Origin: Phenylobacterium sp.
GTDB lineage: Bacteria > Pseudomonadota > Alphaproteobacteria > Caulobacterales > Caulobacteraceae
Assembly: GCF_030645195.1 (NCBI RefSeq)
Contig: NZ_JAUSLW010000111.1
Location: 1,885 to 65,884 of the forward strand
Reading direction: 5' to 3'
DNA: 64,000 nucleotides
Each line of letters begins with the position of its first letter. The first letter of the stretch is position 1. Position numbers and translations under genes: made by a program. The notes under the pieces are model-generated. The model had not been told where the DNA came from and did not search any database. It was given only the letters and a program-made list of their open reading frames with translations. Shown one piece after another: positions 1-8,753 of the stretch.

Positions 1-307
1 CGGCCTGAAGCGGGGCGGCCGCGGCCTCGATCCGTCCGTGACCATCGCCGTCTCGCCCGAAGAGGCCGAGGACCTGGCCGCCTGGCGTCAGGCCGGCGCG
101 CTGGTGGTCGTCCTGGCCAGCGCCACCAGCCCCCGCTCGATCCACCAGGGGGATCTTCGCCAGCTCTGGGACACCGAAGCGGTTCCCGAAGAGGACTCGG
201 CGAGCGCGCAATCGTCCACCTACGGCGTGGCCCGCGCAGCGCCGGCGCCCACCCGCAGCGTGTCGGTGGTCACCCCTTCGGGCGTCCAGAAACAGGACCT
301 CAAATGA
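1..307 (+). CDS. cpaB: Flp pilus assembly protein CpaB/RcpC-like, C-terminal part (runs off the left edge)
   Basis: Frame is open from position 2. VTIAVSPEEAEDLAA..GALVVVL resembles the CpaB C-terminal strand-helix-strand. Stop overlaps the secretin start. Confidence 0.6.
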   Translation, partial: GLKRGGRGLDPSVTIAVSPEEAEDLAAWRQAGALVVVLASATSPRSIHQGDLRQLWDTEAVPEEDSASAQSSTYGVARAAPAPTRSVSVVTPSGVQKQDLK

Positions 308-1542
308 TTCGGCGCCTTGTGCTGGCCGCCGTCGTCTGGGTGCTGGCCTCGCCCGCCCTGGCCCAGGTCCGCACCACGATCACGGAGGGCGGGTTCCTCG
401 TCCTCACCCCCTCCAGCGATGTCAGCTCGGTGGTCATGTCCAACGACAGCACCCTGAAGGTGGATGTCCGAGGCGCGCGACGGATCGTGCTGTTCGGGGT
501 CAAGGAGGGCATCGCCGAGGTGATGCTGATGAATGGCGCCAACCAACAGATCGAGCGGCGCACCGTCGAGGTTACGGCCGACACCGCCAACCTCGCAGCC
601 CTGATCGCGCGCACCGCCCAGGTGCCGAACCTGACGGTGTCGAAGTCGGCCGGCGTGGCCGTGCTGACCGGCGACGCGCCCAACGCCGCCACCGTTGTCC
701 TGGCCGGGGACATCGCCGCCGGCGCCCTGCCGGGCGTCAAGATCATCAACCTGATCCATAGCGCCACCAACGATCAGCTGGCCGTCTCGGTCCGGGTCCT
801 GGAGGTTCGTCGCAACAAGGTCAGGGAGCTCGGCATCCGCTGGCAGGCGCAGAACCGCTTCAACGGCGGGACCGGGGCCATCGGTAACCTGTTCGCCAGC
901 GCCATCGGCACGGCCACCACCACCGACCTGTTCGCCTCGGCCAAGTTCACCATCGACCGGTTGGTCCTGGATACATTCCTGAACTACCTGCGCTCCGAGG
1001 GCGCGGCCACCATGCTGGCGGAGCCGACCATCGTCGCCACCAGCGGCCAGAAGGCCCGTTTCCTGGCCGGCGGCGAGCTCCCGGTTCCCAGTCCCCAGAC
1101 CAACGGCGTCACCAACAATGCGGTGGGCTACACCTACAAGCCCTATGGGGTGACCCTGGAGTTCACCGCCCTCATCCTCGACAACGAGTCGGTCCGGCTG
1201 CAACTGGCTCCGGAAGTCAGCCAGGTGGACACGTCCAATATCGTCGAGTTCAACGGCGCCAAGGTGCCGGGCCTGATCACCCGTAAGACCGACACCACGG
1301 TGACCCTGAAGTTCGGTGAGAGCGTGGCCATCGCGGGCCTGCGTTCGGCGGAGTCGCAGCGTAACAAGCAAGGCCTGCCGTTCCCGACGCCCTTCGACAT
1401 CGGCGACAAGCTGGCCGGCTCGCGCGACTCCCGCAACAGCGACACCGAGCTGGTGCTCATCGTCACCCCCGAACGGGTGGAGGACGCGTCCAAGCACATG
1501 CCCTCGCCGGCCGTCGAGGCGAACCTGTCGCCCTTAAAATGA
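304..1542 (+). CDS. cpaC: Tad/Flp pilus secretin (CpaC/RcpA family)
   Basis: Signal peptide; secretin motifs LAEPTIVATSGQKARFLAGGELPVP, YKPYGVTLEFT, ELVLIVTP. Confidence 0.9.
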   Translation: MIRRLVLAAVVWVLASPALAQVRTTITEGGFLVLTPSSDVSSVVMSNDSTLKVDVRGARRIVLFGVKEGIAEVMLMNGANQQIERRTVEVTADTANLAALIARTAQVPNLTVSKSAGVAVLTGDAPNAATVVLAGDIAAGALPGVKIINLIHSATNDQLAVSVRVLEVRRNKVRELGIRWQAQNRFNGGTGAIGNLFASAIGTATTTDLFASAKFTIDRLVLDTFLNYLRSEGAATMLAEPTIVATSGQKARFLAGGELPVPSPQTNGVTNNAVGYTYKPYGVTLEFTALILDNESVRLQLAPEVSQVDTSNIVEFNGAKVPGLITRKTDTTVTLKFGESVAIAGLRSAESQRNKQGLPFPTPFDIGDKLAGSRDSRNSDTELVLIVTPERVEDASKHMPSPAVEANLSPLK

Positions 1543-2633
1543 GCAGCCTTCTGGATCGCCGCCAGATCATATCGGCTCTCGTCGACGAAGCCGCGCGCGC
1601 CTATCCCACCGCCCGGGTCGGGGCGCTAGCTGTCGAGCCGGAGACCCTGCGCGACTTCTTCCTGGGTCTGCTGGCTCGGGGGCCCAATGTTCCGGGGCTG
1701 GACGCCGAGGAGCTGGCCCAGACTGCGGTCGATGAGGTCCTCGGCTATGGTCCCATCCAGCCGCTGATGACCGATCCCGGGGTCACCGACATCCTGATCA
1801 ATGGCTGGAATGCGATCGTCTATGAGAAGGGCGGACGGCTCACGCCCTTTGACGGCGGCTTCTTCGGTCCGGAGCATCTGGTGGCCTTCGTCCATCGCCA
1901 TGTGGCCAGGGCCGAACGGGCGATCAATCGCGCCAATCCCTGGGTCGATGTCGAGCTGCCTGATGGCTCGCGGATGCACGCGGTCGCCCCGCCGGTGGCC
2001 ATGGGCGGTCCCTTCGTCTCGATCCGCCGTTTCCCGCAGCGTCCCTACACCCTGGCGGACCTGGAGCGCATGGGCGGCGTCACCGCCGAGCAGCGCCAAT
2101 GGCTGGAGGCGGCCGTCGACAGCCGGCTGAACGTGATCGTCGCCGGCGCGCCTGGGGTGGGCAAGACCACGCTGCTGGGCGCCATGCTCGGCCGTGTGCC
2201 GGCCGACCAGCGGATCGTGCTGGTGGAGGATGTCAGCGAGCTGAAGGTCGACCATCCCCACTGCATCAAGCTGCAGACCCGTCGGATCGATCATGGCGAC
2301 GGCGAACAGGCCAACATCCGCAAGCTGGTGCGCGAGACCCTGCGGATGCGGCCCGACCGCCTGGTGGTGGGGGAGGTGCGCGGCGAAGAGGTGTTCGACA
2401 TGATCGCGGCCATGTCCATCGGCCTGGCGGGCTCCCTGAGCACCCTGCACGCCGGATCGATCACCGGGGCGATTCACCGGCTGGAGTCGCTCTACGCCTC
2501 GGCGACCTCGGGGCAGTCAGGGGTCAATCCGGGCCAGGCCCTGCGCGACGCCGTTGACGCCATCGTCTTCCTGCAACGCGACAGCTCGGGCCGGCGGCTG
2601 GTCTCGGAGATCCACAGGTTGGAACGCGTCTAG
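1539..2633 (+). CDS. cpaF: Tad pilus assembly ATPase CpaF/TadA
   Basis: Walker A GAPGVGKT, LRMRPDRLVVGEVRG, STLHA; ATGA overlap with the secretin. Confidence 0.93.
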   Translation: MSSLLDRRQIISALVDEAARAYPTARVGALAVEPETLRDFFLGLLARGPNVPGLDAEELAQTAVDEVLGYGPIQPLMTDPGVTDILINGWNAIVYEKGGRLTPFDGGFFGPEHLVAFVHRHVARAERAINRANPWVDVELPDGSRMHAVAPPVAMGGPFVSIRRFPQRPYTLADLERMGGVTAEQRQWLEAAVDSRLNVIVAGAPGVGKTTLLGAMLGRVPADQRIVLVEDVSELKVDHPHCIKLQTRRIDHGDGEQANIRKLVRETLRMRPDRLVVGEVRGEEVFDMIAAMSIGLAGSLSTLHAGSITGAIHRLESLYASATSGQSGVNPGQALRDAVDAIVFLQRDSSGRRLVSEIHRLERV

Positions 2634-3325
2634 TGTCCTGGCTGCGCTCCCTGCCCGGGCCCGCCCTGATGGCCGGAGTGGTGGCCCTGGGCGCCACGGC
2701 CTGGTGGGCCAAGAGCCTGCCGATGGGGCTGGCGGTCGGGCTCGGCGTCCTGATTCTGGTGGTGCAACTGCTGCGCGGGCGGCAGGCCACTCAGTTGGCG
2801 GCCGAGCGCGCCGCGGTCTCGCGCCTACTGGAGCAGGTCAGCCCGATGTCACGGGCCGGGATGCCCCTGCTGGCCGCCATGGCGGCCTGTTCGCAGGGGT
2901 CGTCGCACCCCGGTCCCCAGGCCCTGGCGCTGGCCCTGCAGGGCCTCTCGGCCGGCCAGCCGGCGGAGACGGCCGCGCGGGGCGTGGAGGCCTGGCCCCT
3001 GTCGAACCTCACCTATCGCCTGTGCCTGGTGCATCGCGAGCAGGGCGGGGCGCCGGAGGGTTTTCTCAAGGCCTTCAGAGACGCCCTGGGCATGGCCGAG
3101 GACCTGGCCAAGAAGCGCAACCTGGCCCTGATCCAGATCCGCTGGCAGGCCAATATCATGACCGCCTTCTTCTTCCTGGTGCTGCTGGCGTCGGCCGCGC
3201 GCGCCGGGCCGCTGTTCGCCAGTCTGCTGGCCACCGATGAGGGGCGCCTCATGGTGACGCTCTCCGCGGCCCTGGTGATCTGGGGGCGGGTGAGCCTGAA
3301 CCTGATCTCTGAGGCCATGCAATGA
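2633..3325 (+). CDS. tadB: TadB-like inner-membrane platform protein (divergent)
   Basis: N- and C-terminal TM segments, T2SS-F-like central helices; follows tadA. Confidence 0.7.
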   Translation: MSWLRSLPGPALMAGVVALGATAWWAKSLPMGLAVGLGVLILVVQLLRGRQATQLAAERAAVSRLLEQVSPMSRAGMPLLAAMAACSQGSSHPGPQALALALQGLSAGQPAETAARGVEAWPLSNLTYRLCLVHREQGGAPEGFLKAFRDALGMAEDLAKKRNLALIQIRWQANIMTAFFFLVLLASAARAGPLFASLLATDEGRLMVTLSAALVIWGRVSLNLISEAMQ

Positions 3326-3807
3326 GCCTGCTCGATCGCCTGCGTAAGACCGCTGCTCTGGAGGACGAAGCCTGCGAGCTGGTGGCGGTCGCGACCCTGG
3401 CCGCAGCCGAGGCCGGCTCGCCGCCGGCCAGCGCCCTGGCCCTGGCCCTGGATGTCACCACCGTCCGGTTCGGGCCCATCATCGAGGCGCTCCGCGTGGT
3501 GGAGCGGCGGCTCCGGTTCAGCCTGGACGGCGGGGCGGTGGCGCAGACTCTGGTCGGGCAAGGCCCGGGCGCGGCCCTGGTGACCGAGGTCGCCGAGGCC
3601 GAGCGCAACGGAGACGACTTGCGCGAGCGCATGCAGATCTTCCTGAAGAACAGTTTCGAGCGTCGGGAATACGAGCTGCGCCAGCGCATCGAGGTGTTCC
3701 CGGTCTACATGATCGTCGTCCTGGTGCTGTTCTTCATGCCGGCGATCCTGATCGTCCTGGTGGGACCTTCGTTCTTCGCCCTGCTGCGGGCGCTCTACGA
3801 GGTCTGA
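3322..3807 (+). CDS. tadC: TadC-like platform protein, unusually short (161 aa)
   Basis: C-terminal FPVYMIVVLVLFFMPAILIVLVGP is typical of TadC; position after tadB. Confidence 0.65.
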   Translation: MSLLDRLRKTAALEDEACELVAVATLAAAEAGSPPASALALALDVTTVRFGPIIEALRVVERRLRFSLDGGAVAQTLVGQGPGAALVTEVAEAERNGDDLRERMQIFLKNSFERREYELRQRIEVFPVYMIVVLVLFFMPAILIVLVGPSFFALLRALYEV

Positions 3808-3809
3808 CC

Positions 3810-3828
3810 GGCGCTCAATCTGAGCGCC
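3810..3828 (+). terminator. Hairpin after tadC (no U-tract)
   Basis: GGCGCTCA-ATC-TGAGCGCC, 8-bp perfect stem just after the tadC stop. Confidence 0.3.
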
Positions 3829-3912
3829 CGTAGCGTGGAGATCACCGGGCTTACAAATTATGGTGAAACTGCTGTGGTGCGACGCGCGCCCAGTCGCGAT
3901 TTGGGGGGCGAA

Positions 3913-4194
3913 ATGAAACCAGTTGTACGCGCGATGGTATTGGCCTCGGCGCTGATGTTCACGACAGCGACGATCGTGCCGATAGCCACGCCGGCCGAAG
4001 CCAAGGTTGTCGGCAAGGTCTTGCACAAGACTAAGAAGCCGCCGATCAAGAAGGCGCTCTCGAAGAAAAAGGGCCTCGCCAAGAAGAAATTGTCCAAGAA
4101 AAAGGGCGTCGGCAAGAAGGCCCTGACCAAGAAGAAGGGCGTGGCGAAGAAGAAGTTGACCAAAAAGGTCCGTCCGATCGTCAAGAAGCCTTAG
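3913..4194 (+). CDS. Secreted lysine-rich repeat peptide (93 aa; mature part about 63 aa with 28 Lys)
   Basis: ATG at 3913, Sec-type signal ending AEA, four 11-aa KKxL(S/T)KK repeats, Lys codons mostly AAG as expected for a real gene. Confidence 0.7.
   Translation: MKPVVRAMVLASALMFTTATIVPIATPAEAKVVGKVLHKTKKPPIKKALSKKKGLAKKKLSKKKGVGKKALTKKKGVAKKKLTKKVRPIVKKP
4048..4179 (+). repeat. Four degenerate 33-bp tandem units encoding the Lys repeats
   Basis: Units begin at 4048, 4081, 4114 and 4147, each starting AAGAAG. Confidence 0.8.
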
Positions 4195-4211
4195 GTCCCT
4201 GGGTCGCCCGC

Positions 4212-4445
4212 ATGCGAACCCTGTTTACCGGACTGCTGAAGGACAATCGTGGCCTGGCCTCGGTCGAGGCCACGATTGTCCTGGCGACCTTGGGTGTGGC
4301 CTTGATCGCTGGCGGCTATGCCGCCGGCCCTGCGATCAAGGCCTACGCCGAGCGGCTCAGCGGCCTGGTGGTGGAGGCGCGATGCCTGTCCGCCGCCGAG
4401 GCCGGCCAACCGCTTCCGGAATCCTGCCCGGCGGGGCCCGGCTAG
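4212..4445 (+). CDS. Flp/TadE-like prepilin
   Basis: LLKDNRG|LASVE followed by a hydrophobic helix: type IVb cleavage site with Glu at +5. Confidence 0.7.
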   Translation: MRTLFTGLLKDNRGLASVEATIVLATLGVALIAGGYAAGPAIKAYAERLSGLVVEARCLSAAEAGQPLPESCPAGPG

Positions 4446-4634
4446 ATGCTGGGGATCCAGATCCTGCTGATCTCGTTCATGGGGTTCCTGGCGGGACTGG
4501 AGGCCTCGGCGCCCGGCGCCGTCGGCGCGGTCCTGACCGCCACCGCCCAGGTGTCGATGGCCGTCCAGGACGGCACGTATCAGAAACTCCACAACCATGT
4601 CGAGTTGTTGAGGGACAGCCCAGGCCCTGTTTAA
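4446..4634 (+). CDS. Small hydrophobic hypothetical protein (62 aa)
   Basis: ATG directly after the prepilin TAG; hydrophobic N-terminus. Confidence 0.4.
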   Translation: MLGIQILLISFMGFLAGLEASAPGAVGAVLTATAQVSMAVQDGTYQKLHNHVELLRDSPGPV

Positions 4635-4691
4635 GCAATTTTAGGTCGAGTTGAATTCGGCTGGTGGTTATCAGTTACACATAATGAGTAA

Positions 4692-5204
4692 GTGAGGCGC
4701 ACGATCGACTTGTGGGCTGACCCCTCCTGTGGCGCTTTGCCTCCCGAGAGCACCGTTCGGGGGGACGTCGTTATTTCGATCAGCAGTGTCGTGAAACTGG
4801 TTTCGGAGCCTGAGGCGCGCCCGTCGCCCGGGGTGGAGACCATCGGTCAGCGCCTGCGTATCTCCACGCGGATGTTCGGCTTTTTCGTCATGCTTCGGAA
4901 GAAGAAGGGCCTGGATGTGGCTGCCTTCCAGATCATGTCGGCCTTCAATCTCGCCGGCCTGGCCGAGCAGCAACGAGCCTATGGGGCCGGCGCGGCGTTT
5001 GGTGGCGCGCCCTTCGGCGCGGCCCTGTCGGCCACGGCGCTCTCGGACATGACCGGGATTCCGCGCCAGACCGTGCGGCGGCGGCTGCAGACGCTGCAGG
5101 GGCTAGGATACCTGACCGTCGAGACCGACGGCTCCTATCGCATGAGCGCGCACTGGAGCGAGCTGGACATCGTCGACGAGGTCGGCGGCCTCATCGCCCG
5201 CTGA
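4692..5204 (+). CDS. Winged helix-turn-helix DNA-binding protein
   Basis: C-terminal LSATALSDMTGIPRQTVRRRLQTLQGLGYL HTH plus wing. Confidence 0.7.
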   Translation: MRRTIDLWADPSCGALPPESTVRGDVVISISSVVKLVSEPEARPSPGVETIGQRLRISTRMFGFFVMLRKKKGLDVAAFQIMSAFNLAGLAEQQRAYGAGAAFGGAPFGAALSATALSDMTGIPRQTVRRRLQTLQGLGYLTVETDGSYRMSAHWSELDIVDEVGGLIAR

Positions 5205-5465
5205 ATCTCGGGCTCCGCCCGCGGCAGGCCGACGGAGTTGGTCGCGCCCACTGCTGGCTGTCACGAGACCCGACCAATGGCGCTCCAGGGGCGCACAAGG
5301 TTTACGATCTGTTTCTTAGGTCGAGCGCCCTCATACTTGTGAAACCACGTCCATTCTCCAGCCTTTAGGGTCGAGGGCGTTACTTGAACGACAACGGCAG
5401 TTGTTCAGGCTAGGTACGTGTTCAACAAAATCTTTAGTCTTGAGCCGGGGTCCTCCGCCTGGGCC

Positions 5466-5627
5466 ATGGTCACCCGCTCCGTCCGCGCCCTGATCGCCGA
5501 CCGGGGCGGCCTCAGCACCGTGGAATACTCCACCATGGGCGGGGTGATGTCGGGCGCCATCTACATGGCCGGACAGGCGCTCCAGCAGGCCCAGCTCTCG
5601 GCCATCGAAAGCCTAACCGGGCCATAG
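5466..5627 (+). CDS. flp: Flp family type IVb pilin (alternative GTG start at 5418)
   Basis: LIADRGG|LSTVEY, the Flp motif with E+5 and Y+6, then a hydrophobic helix. Confidence 0.75.
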   Translation: MVTRSVRALIADRGGLSTVEYSTMGGVMSGAIYMAGQALQQAQLSAIESLTGP

Positions 5628-6320
5628 CGAGCTGATCGCGTTGACCGTGCCGTCACCTCTGCGGATCGCATCCTACGGTCAGCATGGCGCGCGTCATGTG
5701 GGTCGCTCCTCAGAACTGGCAAGGGGCCGACCACTAGCGTCGCGAAATCCGTTGTCCGGGAGCTGTTCCAGGACAAAACCAATGTAGCTGCTCGACATTG
5801 AGGCCGCGCGCTGGCCAGAGCACGTAACTGACCCGTCATGCCGCTGGGGATGGCCAATAGCGCCTACCTCGCCCTGGGAAAATGTCGCCCGGAAGCCATA
5901 CTGCGCCTTGAAGCGGCGCGGAGGGGAGGTCGCCGCCCAGGTTCCGGAAGGCGCAAATGCCTCCTGCGCGATGCATGACTTGCCTGATCCCACATCATCT
6001 GCGCCATCGCCGAGATGAGCCGGTTCCAGGCTGCGCAGGGCTCGGGACCAGCGGCGCCTCCAATTGAGGGACCTGAGGCGTGTGCCCGCCTGCAGAATAT
6101 TTTCAGATCAGCGTCTGAATTTCTCGAAGCAAATGCCCCTGCTGAAATGTCCACCTGCGTGACTTTGGGCGGATCGCCCTCAAAAATACTCAAGCTTCAC
6201 TGCTGAAGCGTCACAATGGAATTGCGAACTTCGTGACATTAATGCGACCTTAATTGGCCCCCGGAGGGCTTAGAAGCCCCCCAACTGTTCGACTCGTCTG
6301 AATGAACTTGGGGTTTTCTA

Positions 6321-8753
<2,433 letters not shown>

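Follow-up and report, generated by a model that had tools for sequence, protein, structure and literature searches.

A lysine-rich, putatively exported repeat protein encoded in a compact second Tad cassette of Phenylobacterium sp. and its possible role in adhesion

What could an extremely lysine-rich small protein be doing among the genes of a Tad pilus? The question is raised by a locus of Phenylobacterium sp. (assembly GCF_030645195.1) lying in the stretch of DNA analysed here, 64,000 nucleotides of contig NZ_JAUSLW010000111.1 (positions 1,885 to 65,884 of the forward strand), which is called the window below and to which positions given without a further label refer. The gene in question (3913..4194, + strand, stop codon included) encodes a protein of 93 amino acids (aa), hereafter the K-rich protein, and belongs to a compact Tad cassette. 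Tad pili play a central part in how bacteria adhere and sense surfaces, Caulobacter being the model, and their accessory repertoire is treated as known. The locus adds to it a compact cassette with an atypical acidic pilin and a fixed, extremely cationic, disordered and putatively secreted partner; neither has a database family, and our literature search returned no paper describing this cassette or a lysine-rich or polycationic protein linked to Tad. The answer that we propose, tentatively and with somewhat less than even confidence, is that the K-rich protein is an exported polycation, a fixed component of the cassette, which acts as a charge-driven partner of the pilus and binds polyanions for adhesion.

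Judging from the comparison of orthologs, the K-rich open reading frame (ORF) is a genuine conserved gene. It has 93 codons, from an ATG at 3913 to a stop at 4192-4194. The initial annotation had read it as a 30-aa signal peptide ending in AEA, followed by a stretch of 63 aa in which 28 are Lys, one is Arg and none is acidic, had divided it into four 11-aa repeats on 33-bp units, and had placed it between tadC and a prepilin gene on the same strand. All of this is confirmed: residues 1-30 are MKPVVRAMVLASALMFTTATIVPIATPAEA; the mature part of 63 aa contains 28 K, 1 R, 1 H and 0 D/E; Tandem Repeats Finder returns a period of 33 bp (3.2 copies, 76-79% matches, 4047-4163); and the gene begins 105 nt after tadC and ends 17 nt before the prepilin gene, below called orf77, on the same strand. 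The start codon is preceded, at a distance of 4 nt, by a ribosome-binding site in the form of a G-run (3903..3908, +), which is conserved in orthologs: at 4-8 nt ahead of the ATG, 9/9 orthologs shown have ATTTGGGGGGC or a GGGGG variant, and similar G-runs precede the ATG in three further, more distant ones. In the public annotation the gene begins at GTG 3835 and its product has 119 aa; this start was dropped in favour of ATG 3913, since across orthologs only the G-run and the ATG are conserved and the extension is not. The K-rich gene of one relative is also annotated with an N-terminal extension, of 14 residues. Such annotated extensions (3835-3912 in the window, and that of the relative) mask the signal peptide from automated prediction.

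The coding frame is supported by the pattern of substitutions as well. Codons 1-30 differ from those of the Phenylobacterium ortholog in locus L024 by 12 synonymous and 3 non-synonymous changes, and over the first 138 nt no other of the six frames has as high a proportion of synonymous changes as the sense frame (14:8 synonymous to non-synonymous). An antisense, F-rich ORF (3858-4184, minus strand) was considered and ruled out, its frame giving 2:19 over the same 138 nt versus 14:8 in the sense frame. The GC content of third codon positions alone would be undecisive here, because AAG (sense) and TTC (antisense) both end in G or C, and it is the comparative data that decide. The ORF is also the most lysine-dense of the assembly (3.94 Mb, 69% GC), with 21 K per 40 aa against 18 in the runner-up; in the ordinary genes of the window, K makes up 2.9% and R 6.1%. 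Next in lysine density in this genome comes the ORF of a MarR-type regulator whose C-terminal tail is lysine-rich (K/P/E/A; G000:C56, minus strand, near 4138).

The K-rich gene is tied to one particular neighbourhood. The cassette has the order flp1 (65 aa), cpaA prepilin peptidase, small membrane ORF, cpaB/rcpC, secretin, CpaF-type ATPase, tadB, tadC, K-rich gene, orf77, orf62, HTH, flp2, the part from flp1 to the 5' portion of cpaB having been read from 1.9 kb of the contig upstream of the window. A canonical CpaF paralog (40% identity) and TadB/C paralogs of canonical length are encoded elsewhere in the genome, and the locus is thus a second, compact Tad cassette. An ORF combining a signal peptide with polylysine stands directly after tadC in every lineage opened with sequence past tadC, bar one clade, and in the orthologs the K-rich gene is always found between the short tadC and an Flp-type minor-pilin gene. 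Its carriers belong to Phenylobacterium (loci L024, L025-28 and L038; P. ferrooxidans HK31-G, L037; P. conjunctum, L040), to Caulobacter (C. henricii, L041; C. vibrioides OR37, L043, identical with locus L033) and to metagenomic lineages (L044-47 and L049-56, with TadC 50-80% identical). As evidence against itself the initial annotation had named homologs unlinked to tad genes or lacking the signal peptide; every homolog found sits in the same tad cassette, and the signal-peptide architecture is kept in 12/12 orthologs. A control set of 18 canonical tadC loci from relatives contained no lysine-rich ORF, with at most 10 K per 40 residues. The genes flanking the cassette vary between genomes, even among close Phenylobacterium relatives, which suggests that the whole cassette, with the K-rich gene in it, is either mobile or kept together as one unit.

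The exception mentioned above is a Phenylobacterium clade (G029/L023/L036 and L035) in which the K-rich gene, orf77, orf62, the HTH gene and flp2 are all absent; homology to the window stops there in an AT-rich stretch about 55 nt past the tadC stop (L023 5717-6565, on G029:C15, compared with window 3808-3860). Loss of the K-rich gene was seen only jointly with loss of the minor-pilin, orf62 and HTH genes. In this clade a transglutaminase-like gene comes next instead of these genes. On the whole, the compact cassette is rare and present in a minority of Caulobacteraceae (Phenylobacterium, Caulobacter). Its short TadC forms 27 protein clusters in public data and was found in 9 loci among 185,579 species genomes; a search of plasmids with this TadC gave no match. 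As to the K-rich protein itself, five homologous proteins were retrieved among 5.8 billion searched, more orthologs coming from related loci; none of 36 species representatives of the same genus matched it, and with a profile built from the five Phenylobacterium proteins, 3 of 401 genomes in the family gave a match, one of them being that of the window.

We consider it probable, on the strength of the N-terminal sequences, that the K-rich protein is exported. The predicted Sec-type signal peptide (3913..4002, +) consists of an n-region with K2 and R6, 22 uncharged residues and the cleavage motif AEA/K. In 12/12 orthologs the n-region carries a charge of +1 to +3; the uncharged stretch, c-region included, spans 17-23 residues in these proteins, the lower figure being short for a membrane span, and its end lies close to a conserved I-[VA]-P; directly after the uncharged core, an acidic residue is kept across all 12, and A-x-A is found at residues 27-31 in every one of them. 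In 5/12 orthologs the hydrophobic core has just 17 residues and the next 15 are neutral or acidic, a pattern that agrees better with a signal peptide that is cleaved than with an anchor in the membrane. The distant orthologs have 3-10 uncharged or acidic residues ahead of the first lysine, yet reach +4 to +7 over the first 18 mature residues. Neither a class III (prepilin peptidase) signal G/xxxxE[YF] nor a lipobox is present in the K-rich protein. One ortholog has a Cys-x10-Cys pair within its basic region, which fits an oxidising compartment outside the cytoplasm. Extra features within or behind the basic region are seen in two divergent orthologs, namely a loop bounded by Cys (DCQVVSGGVTDC) in L047 (7576-8109) and an aromatic C-terminal tail (PVSYIWVSNPSWMTA) in L044 (7578-8057).

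The mature part opens with a conserved N-terminal segment, KVVGKVLHKTKKPPI (4003..4047, +), which the alignment across genera reduces to the family motif K-[VTI]-[LI]-x-K-x-K-K-[PS]-P. Taken slightly further, as K-[VTI]-[LI]-x-K-x-K-K-[PS]-P-x-K-K at the mature start, this is the sole non-repeat mature segment alignable across genera, and it may serve as an export or recognition signal. It is followed by four lysine-rich tandem repeats of 33 bp and 11 aa (residues 46-89; 4048..4179, +), corresponding to the period given by Tandem Repeats Finder; the units are KKALSKKKGLA, KKKLSKKKGVG, KKALTKKKGVA and KKKLTKKVRPI. The repeat unit is KKKPTKAQLAKL in other Phenylobacterium, KKVKKDPTKKGA in OR37 and KKKAAARKKASLA in L044, whereas C. 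henricii and P. conjunctum have S/T/K units, and its length is 11, 12 or 13 residues depending on the lineage. Even near-identical strains differ by whole repeats (89 vs 101 aa; 88 vs 125 aa). In 12 orthologs the mature part has 27-53% Lys and a net charge of +20 to +47 (+29 in the window protein), its length ranging across orthologs from 59 to 148 residues. In the structure predicted by AlphaFold2 from the family alignment, residues 3-20 alone form a helix and the remainder is coil (mean predicted local distance difference test score 62, predicted template modelling score 0.19). A reading of the 11-residue repeat as an amphipathic helix was rejected, as the helical hydrophobic moment shows no excess over shuffled sequences in 7/7 family members and the orthologs have Pro or Gly in every repeat.

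Composition and approximate length are thus kept while the repeats are replaced, which suggests that bulk charge, and not a fold, carries the function. The properties under selection then appear, from the sequences and the structural model, to be the export signal, the short N-terminal motif, a high charge density due to Lys and not to Arg, disorder and approximate length. Lys is strongly preferred over Arg in a GC-rich genome, which suggests that lysine-specific properties are important; weaker membrane activity, primary-amine chemistry and interfacial adhesion are the candidates. The family is a clean case of selection acting on charge and length amid turnover of repeat sequence.

If the protein works through charge, what could it bind? 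One candidate partner is encoded by the cassette itself. The major pilin Flp1 (L002 408-602, the same as G000:C57:408-602, upstream of the window) has a mature part of 46-51 aa (LTSTEYSTMGGAMAGG...DNVVNAVAGDDAAV), which in every complete copy contains 4-7 D/E but neither K nor R; the canonical Flp pilins encoded in this genome carry net charges of 0 and -2. Its N-terminal half is rich in Gly, Ala, Ser and Thr and weakly hydrophobic (STMGGAMAGGVFT). Flp1 is 77-94% identical across genera, compared with 42-73% for the proteins of the machinery. In the solved structure of the Caulobacter Tad pilus, the C-terminal end of the pilin faces outward and three subunits are added per 14.7 Å (PMC11067988). 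A filament of Flp1, if packed in the same way, would be a polyanion with a linear charge density roughly similar to that of DNA.

The proposed course of events is as follows. The precursor would pass through Sec and be cleaved after the conserved A-x-A, as the architecture of the N-terminus suggests, and the mature polycation (+29; +20 to +47 in orthologs) would act through its bulk charge rather than through a fold. It might leave the periplasm with or through the pilus and secretin of the cassette, as TcpF and CofJ do in type IVb systems. TcpF of the toxin-coregulated pilus (TCP) of Vibrio cholerae and CofJ of the CFA/III pilus of enterotoxigenic Escherichia coli (ETEC) are exported by Sec and encoded in the pilus operon; their disordered N-terminal signal binds the minor pilin, and they exit via the pilus machine (PMC10120004). 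Like them, the K-rich protein is encoded in a pilus operon next to a pilin gene, directly upstream of a minor-pilin-like one, and combines a Sec-type signal peptide with a conserved, predicted-disordered N-terminal mature segment. The likely recognition pair would be this segment and either the minor pilin encoded by the adjacent orf77 or the growing pilus. Outside the cell the protein would bind polyanions and so bring about adhesion or aggregation, the candidates being the acidic Flp filament of the cassette, extracellular DNA, acidic polysaccharide and negatively charged surfaces. The initial annotation had likewise suggested a binder of DNA, polysaccharide or anionic surfaces that might exit through the secretin. 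A more specific version, which we think rather unlikely, is a two-component polyelectrolyte adhesive, in which the anionic Flp filament is coated or bundled by a ribosomally made, pilus-exported, polylysine-like counter-polymer that bridges it to negatively charged surfaces or extracellular DNA; if true, bacteria would here have a counterpart to marine bioadhesives with their pairs of oppositely charged proteins.

Several points weigh against this proposal. The clade without the K-rich module keeps an acidic Flp1, so that the pilin is not strictly dependent on a K-rich partner, provided that this cassette still works, and the net charge of the K-rich protein shows no visible tracking of the acidity of the pilin. 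The window protein has K at the mature position +1 and a net charge of +7 over its first 18 mature residues. In Gram-negative bacteria, Sec export is hampered when the early mature region is basic. Easy translocation of a lysine tail is also disfavoured by the positive-inside rule (PMC9360617). TcpF and CofJ differ from the K-rich protein in belonging to type IVb systems and having folded domains, whereas the K-rich protein is predicted to be wholly disordered, is associated with a Tad (type IVc) system and has no sequence similarity to them. Finally, we know of no Tad system that exports a protein.

The same data bear on other explanations. After export the polycation might remain in the periplasm as a resident part of the machine, either free or still fixed by a signal peptide that is not cleaved; it would then bind peptidoglycan, anionic lipid head groups or the secretin, serving as a spacer, an anchor or a gate that stands in for the missing CpaD, TadD-type pilotin or TadG. 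Periplasm-spanning lysine-rich or proline-rich linkers are known from TonB and TolA, and both the absence of CpaD, CpaE/TadZ, TadD and TadG genes from the cassette and the fixed position of the K-rich gene between the platform genes and the minor pilin agree with such a role. However, parts of a machine usually keep their sequence, and the K-rich protein keeps its composition only, with a mature length of anything from 59 to 148 residues; moreover, one clade keeps the core machine without the gene, and the protein has neither a lipobox nor a second domain to contact a partner. We regard a periplasmic role as unlikely. Less probable still is the reverse orientation, with an uncleaved N-terminus as an anchor and a cytoplasmic polylysine tail that binds anionic lipids, the nucleoid or the ATPase and, with TadZ/CpaE missing, could be what positions the machine. 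It is in line with the positive-inside rule (PMC9360617), with the charges in the window protein and its close relatives (+4 in the 15 residues after the hydrophobic core vs +2 before it), with the lack of TadZ/CpaE and with an ATPase that is devoid of the first ~110 residues of CpaF. The orthologs speak against it: five of the 12 have a 17-residue core followed by 15 neutral or acidic residues, all 12 have A-x-A at the expected distance, and one has the Cys pair in its basic region.

Two functions outside the machine were weighed as well, and we find each of them very unlikely. The compositional likeness to histone H1 tails might point to a DNA receptor in the periplasm or on the surface, which by its charge would stand in for ComEA during DNA uptake by the Tad pilus, and the genome does encode ComEC (PF03772; G000:C127:8387-9241), with no HHH_3/ComEA-type domain found in it. 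In Micrococcus luteus and Liberibacter crescens, two reports describe uptake of DNA driven by Tad pili (PMC4322843, PMC8513845). But a control genome, that of Caulobacter vibrioides (cassette status unchecked), likewise has ComEC without HHH_3, the genome under study is 92% complete, and no competence gene lies in or beside the cassette. Natural transformation is, to our knowledge, not known for these genera. As for the other function, polylysines are antimicrobial, and the extreme cationic charge would suit an antimicrobial polycation that is secreted, whether as a polylysine made by ribosomes or as a cationic peptide directed at competitors, possibly delivered at pilus contact. Contact killing mediated by a Tad-like pilus is reported for Myxococcus (PMC12075869). 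The antimicrobial option, which the initial annotation had left open, is nevertheless disfavoured: in no ortholog does the hydrophobic moment exceed that of shuffled sequences, several orthologs are nearly devoid of hydrophobic residues, and the cassette has no gene for immunity, an ABC exporter or another transporter, or a leader peptidase. Nor are the host bacteria known to us as predators. Finally, the ORF might be a functionless low-complexity sequence or repeat expansion riding along with the cassette, as its fast-evolving repeat region and its absence from one clade would allow. The conservation data largely, in essence, exclude this reading, and we give it a vanishingly small probability: the ribosome-binding site, start codon, signal peptide and A-x-A are kept across genera in which TadC is just 50-65% identical, lysine richness is held against 69% GC, and the synonymous excess is found in the sense frame only.

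With these alternatives in view, an exported polycation that partners the pilus in adhesion would have consequences beyond the present locus. If true, the K-rich protein would be the first protein cargo of a Tad system. Should it leave with the pilus, pilus-dependent protein export would extend from type IVb to type IVc, and a natural polylysine would be known that is encoded by a gene and has an export route of its own. Among the carriers, Caulobacter henricii, C. vibrioides OR37, Phenylobacterium ferrooxidans HK31-G and P. conjunctum are in culture, which makes these hypotheses directly testable.

The remaining genes of the cassette that lie in the window are all on the + strand. The window opens with the 3' end of cpaB/rcpC (1..307), a gene that begins upstream of it (L002 1301-2191, a match to TIGR03177 CpaB). 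There follow a secretin of the CpaC/RcpA type (304..1542; Pfam Secretin and T2SS-T3SS_pil_N), a short CpaF/TadA-type ATPase of 364 aa (1539..2633; Pfam T2SSE), a tadB-like platform protein of 230 aa (2633..3325; Pfam T2SSF) and the short tadC-like platform protein of 161 aa that serves as the marker of the cassette (3322..3807; Pfam T2SSF, PF00482; 27 homologous clusters). The solved structure nearest to the ATPase is that of Caulobacter CpaF, to which it aligns over residues 112-436 of 501, the first ~110 being lacking. Its best NCBIfam match, TIGR03819 ('conjugal transfer-associated TadA'), lies below the cut-off and was not accepted as evidence for DNA transfer. No genes for TadZ/CpaE, CpaD, TadD or TadG were seen in the cassette loci opened.

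Downstream of the K-rich gene, orf77 (4212..4445) encodes a minor-pilin-like prepilin of the Flp type, of 77 aa, with the motif G/LASVE; the class III signal G/xxxxE and two Cys are invariant in 7 orthologs. The next gene, orf62 (4446..4634), encodes a conserved small protein with a hydrophobic N-terminus (MLGIQILLISFMGFLAGLEASAPG...) and follows orf77 in every locus with the module; no Pfam or NCBIfam family matches it. It has a G-x-E-x-x-A-P-G motif, which in some orthologs reads as a lipobox (VTGC), a feature that is not conserved. A winged-helix regulator similar to IclR/MarR, of uncertain start codon, is encoded at 4692..5204 (Pfam HTH_IclR/MarR_2) and is conserved in the module; the second Flp-type pilin gene, flp2 (5466..5627, motif G/LSTVEY), occurs in the Phenylobacterium loci only. 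Between flp2 and a TonB-dependent receptor gene (6321-8753), the window (5680-6263) is without the extra set of extracytoplasmic function (ECF) sigma factor, FecR and TonB-receptor genes found in related Phenylobacterium (L024 9709-14848).

As to expression signals, a sigma-70 promoter scan of 3600-5800 gave no promoter-like site, and in a terminator scan of the same region terminator-like sites appeared at chance frequency. A hairpin or palindrome, GGCGCTCA-ATC-TGAGCGCC (3810..3828, +), is located 3 nt past the tadC stop. Its core GC[TC]CA-AWC-TG[AG]GC is conserved in 13/13 loci compared (10 of them aligned), including the clade without the K-rich module; one pair is compensatory (UA to CG), and no T-run follows the hairpin. 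It could be an element of RNA processing or stability, or an operator for the HTH regulator of the cassette.

How does the K-rich protein relate to what is known? The initial annotation had stated that it is not a recognised Tad component, and this holds: profile searches of Pfam, NCBIfam and the PDB returned no family for the window protein, and its orthologs gave nothing beyond scattered sub-threshold low-complexity matches in Pfam and NCBIfam. One such match, DUF7279, was discarded as it is sub-threshold and confined to one repeat type. A profile search of 1.84 billion representative proteins retrieved the window protein, one Caulobacter-type relative and three eukaryotic repeat proteins, the latter being regarded as compositional matches. 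In composition (K, A, P, S/T), disorder and repeat turnover the protein resembles the C-terminal tails of histone H1, Hc1/Hc2 of Chlamydia and AlgP of Pseudomonas. Those proteins, unlike it, are cytoplasmic or nuclear DNA binders without a signal peptide, and none of the linker histone, Hc1, HBHA and AlgP models reaches threshold on the K-rich protein.

In mycobacteria, HBHA and the tail of Hlp/HupB use short K/A/P-rich tandem repeats to bind heparan sulphate or DNA by charge, in adhesion (PMC3293801, PMC10665949). The K-rich protein shares with HBHA's lysine-rich domain and the laminin-binding Hlp/HupB tail its short K/A/P/S/T tandem repeats and high positive charge. HBHA, in contrast, is a coiled coil with a short repeat tail and no signal peptide, whereas the K-rich protein consists of a signal peptide and repeats only, and no homology between the two was detected by Pfam or PDB search. 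In terms of likely function, TcpF/CofJ as pilus cargo and the lysine-rich repeats of HBHA and H1-like proteins as charge-based polyanion binders come nearest, but the K-rich protein belongs to none of these groups. As for the cassette, it shares with canonical Tad/Flp systems (flp-tad-rcp of Aggregatibacter, pilA-cpa of Caulobacter) the genes for Flp, prepilin peptidase, CpaB/RcpC, secretin, CpaF-type ATPase, TadB and TadC. It differs from them in the absence of TadZ/CpaE, CpaD, TadD and TadG, in its short ATPase, TadB and TadC, in its acidic and weakly hydrophobic pilin, and in the extra module made up of the K-rich gene, the minor pilin, orf62 and the HTH regulator.

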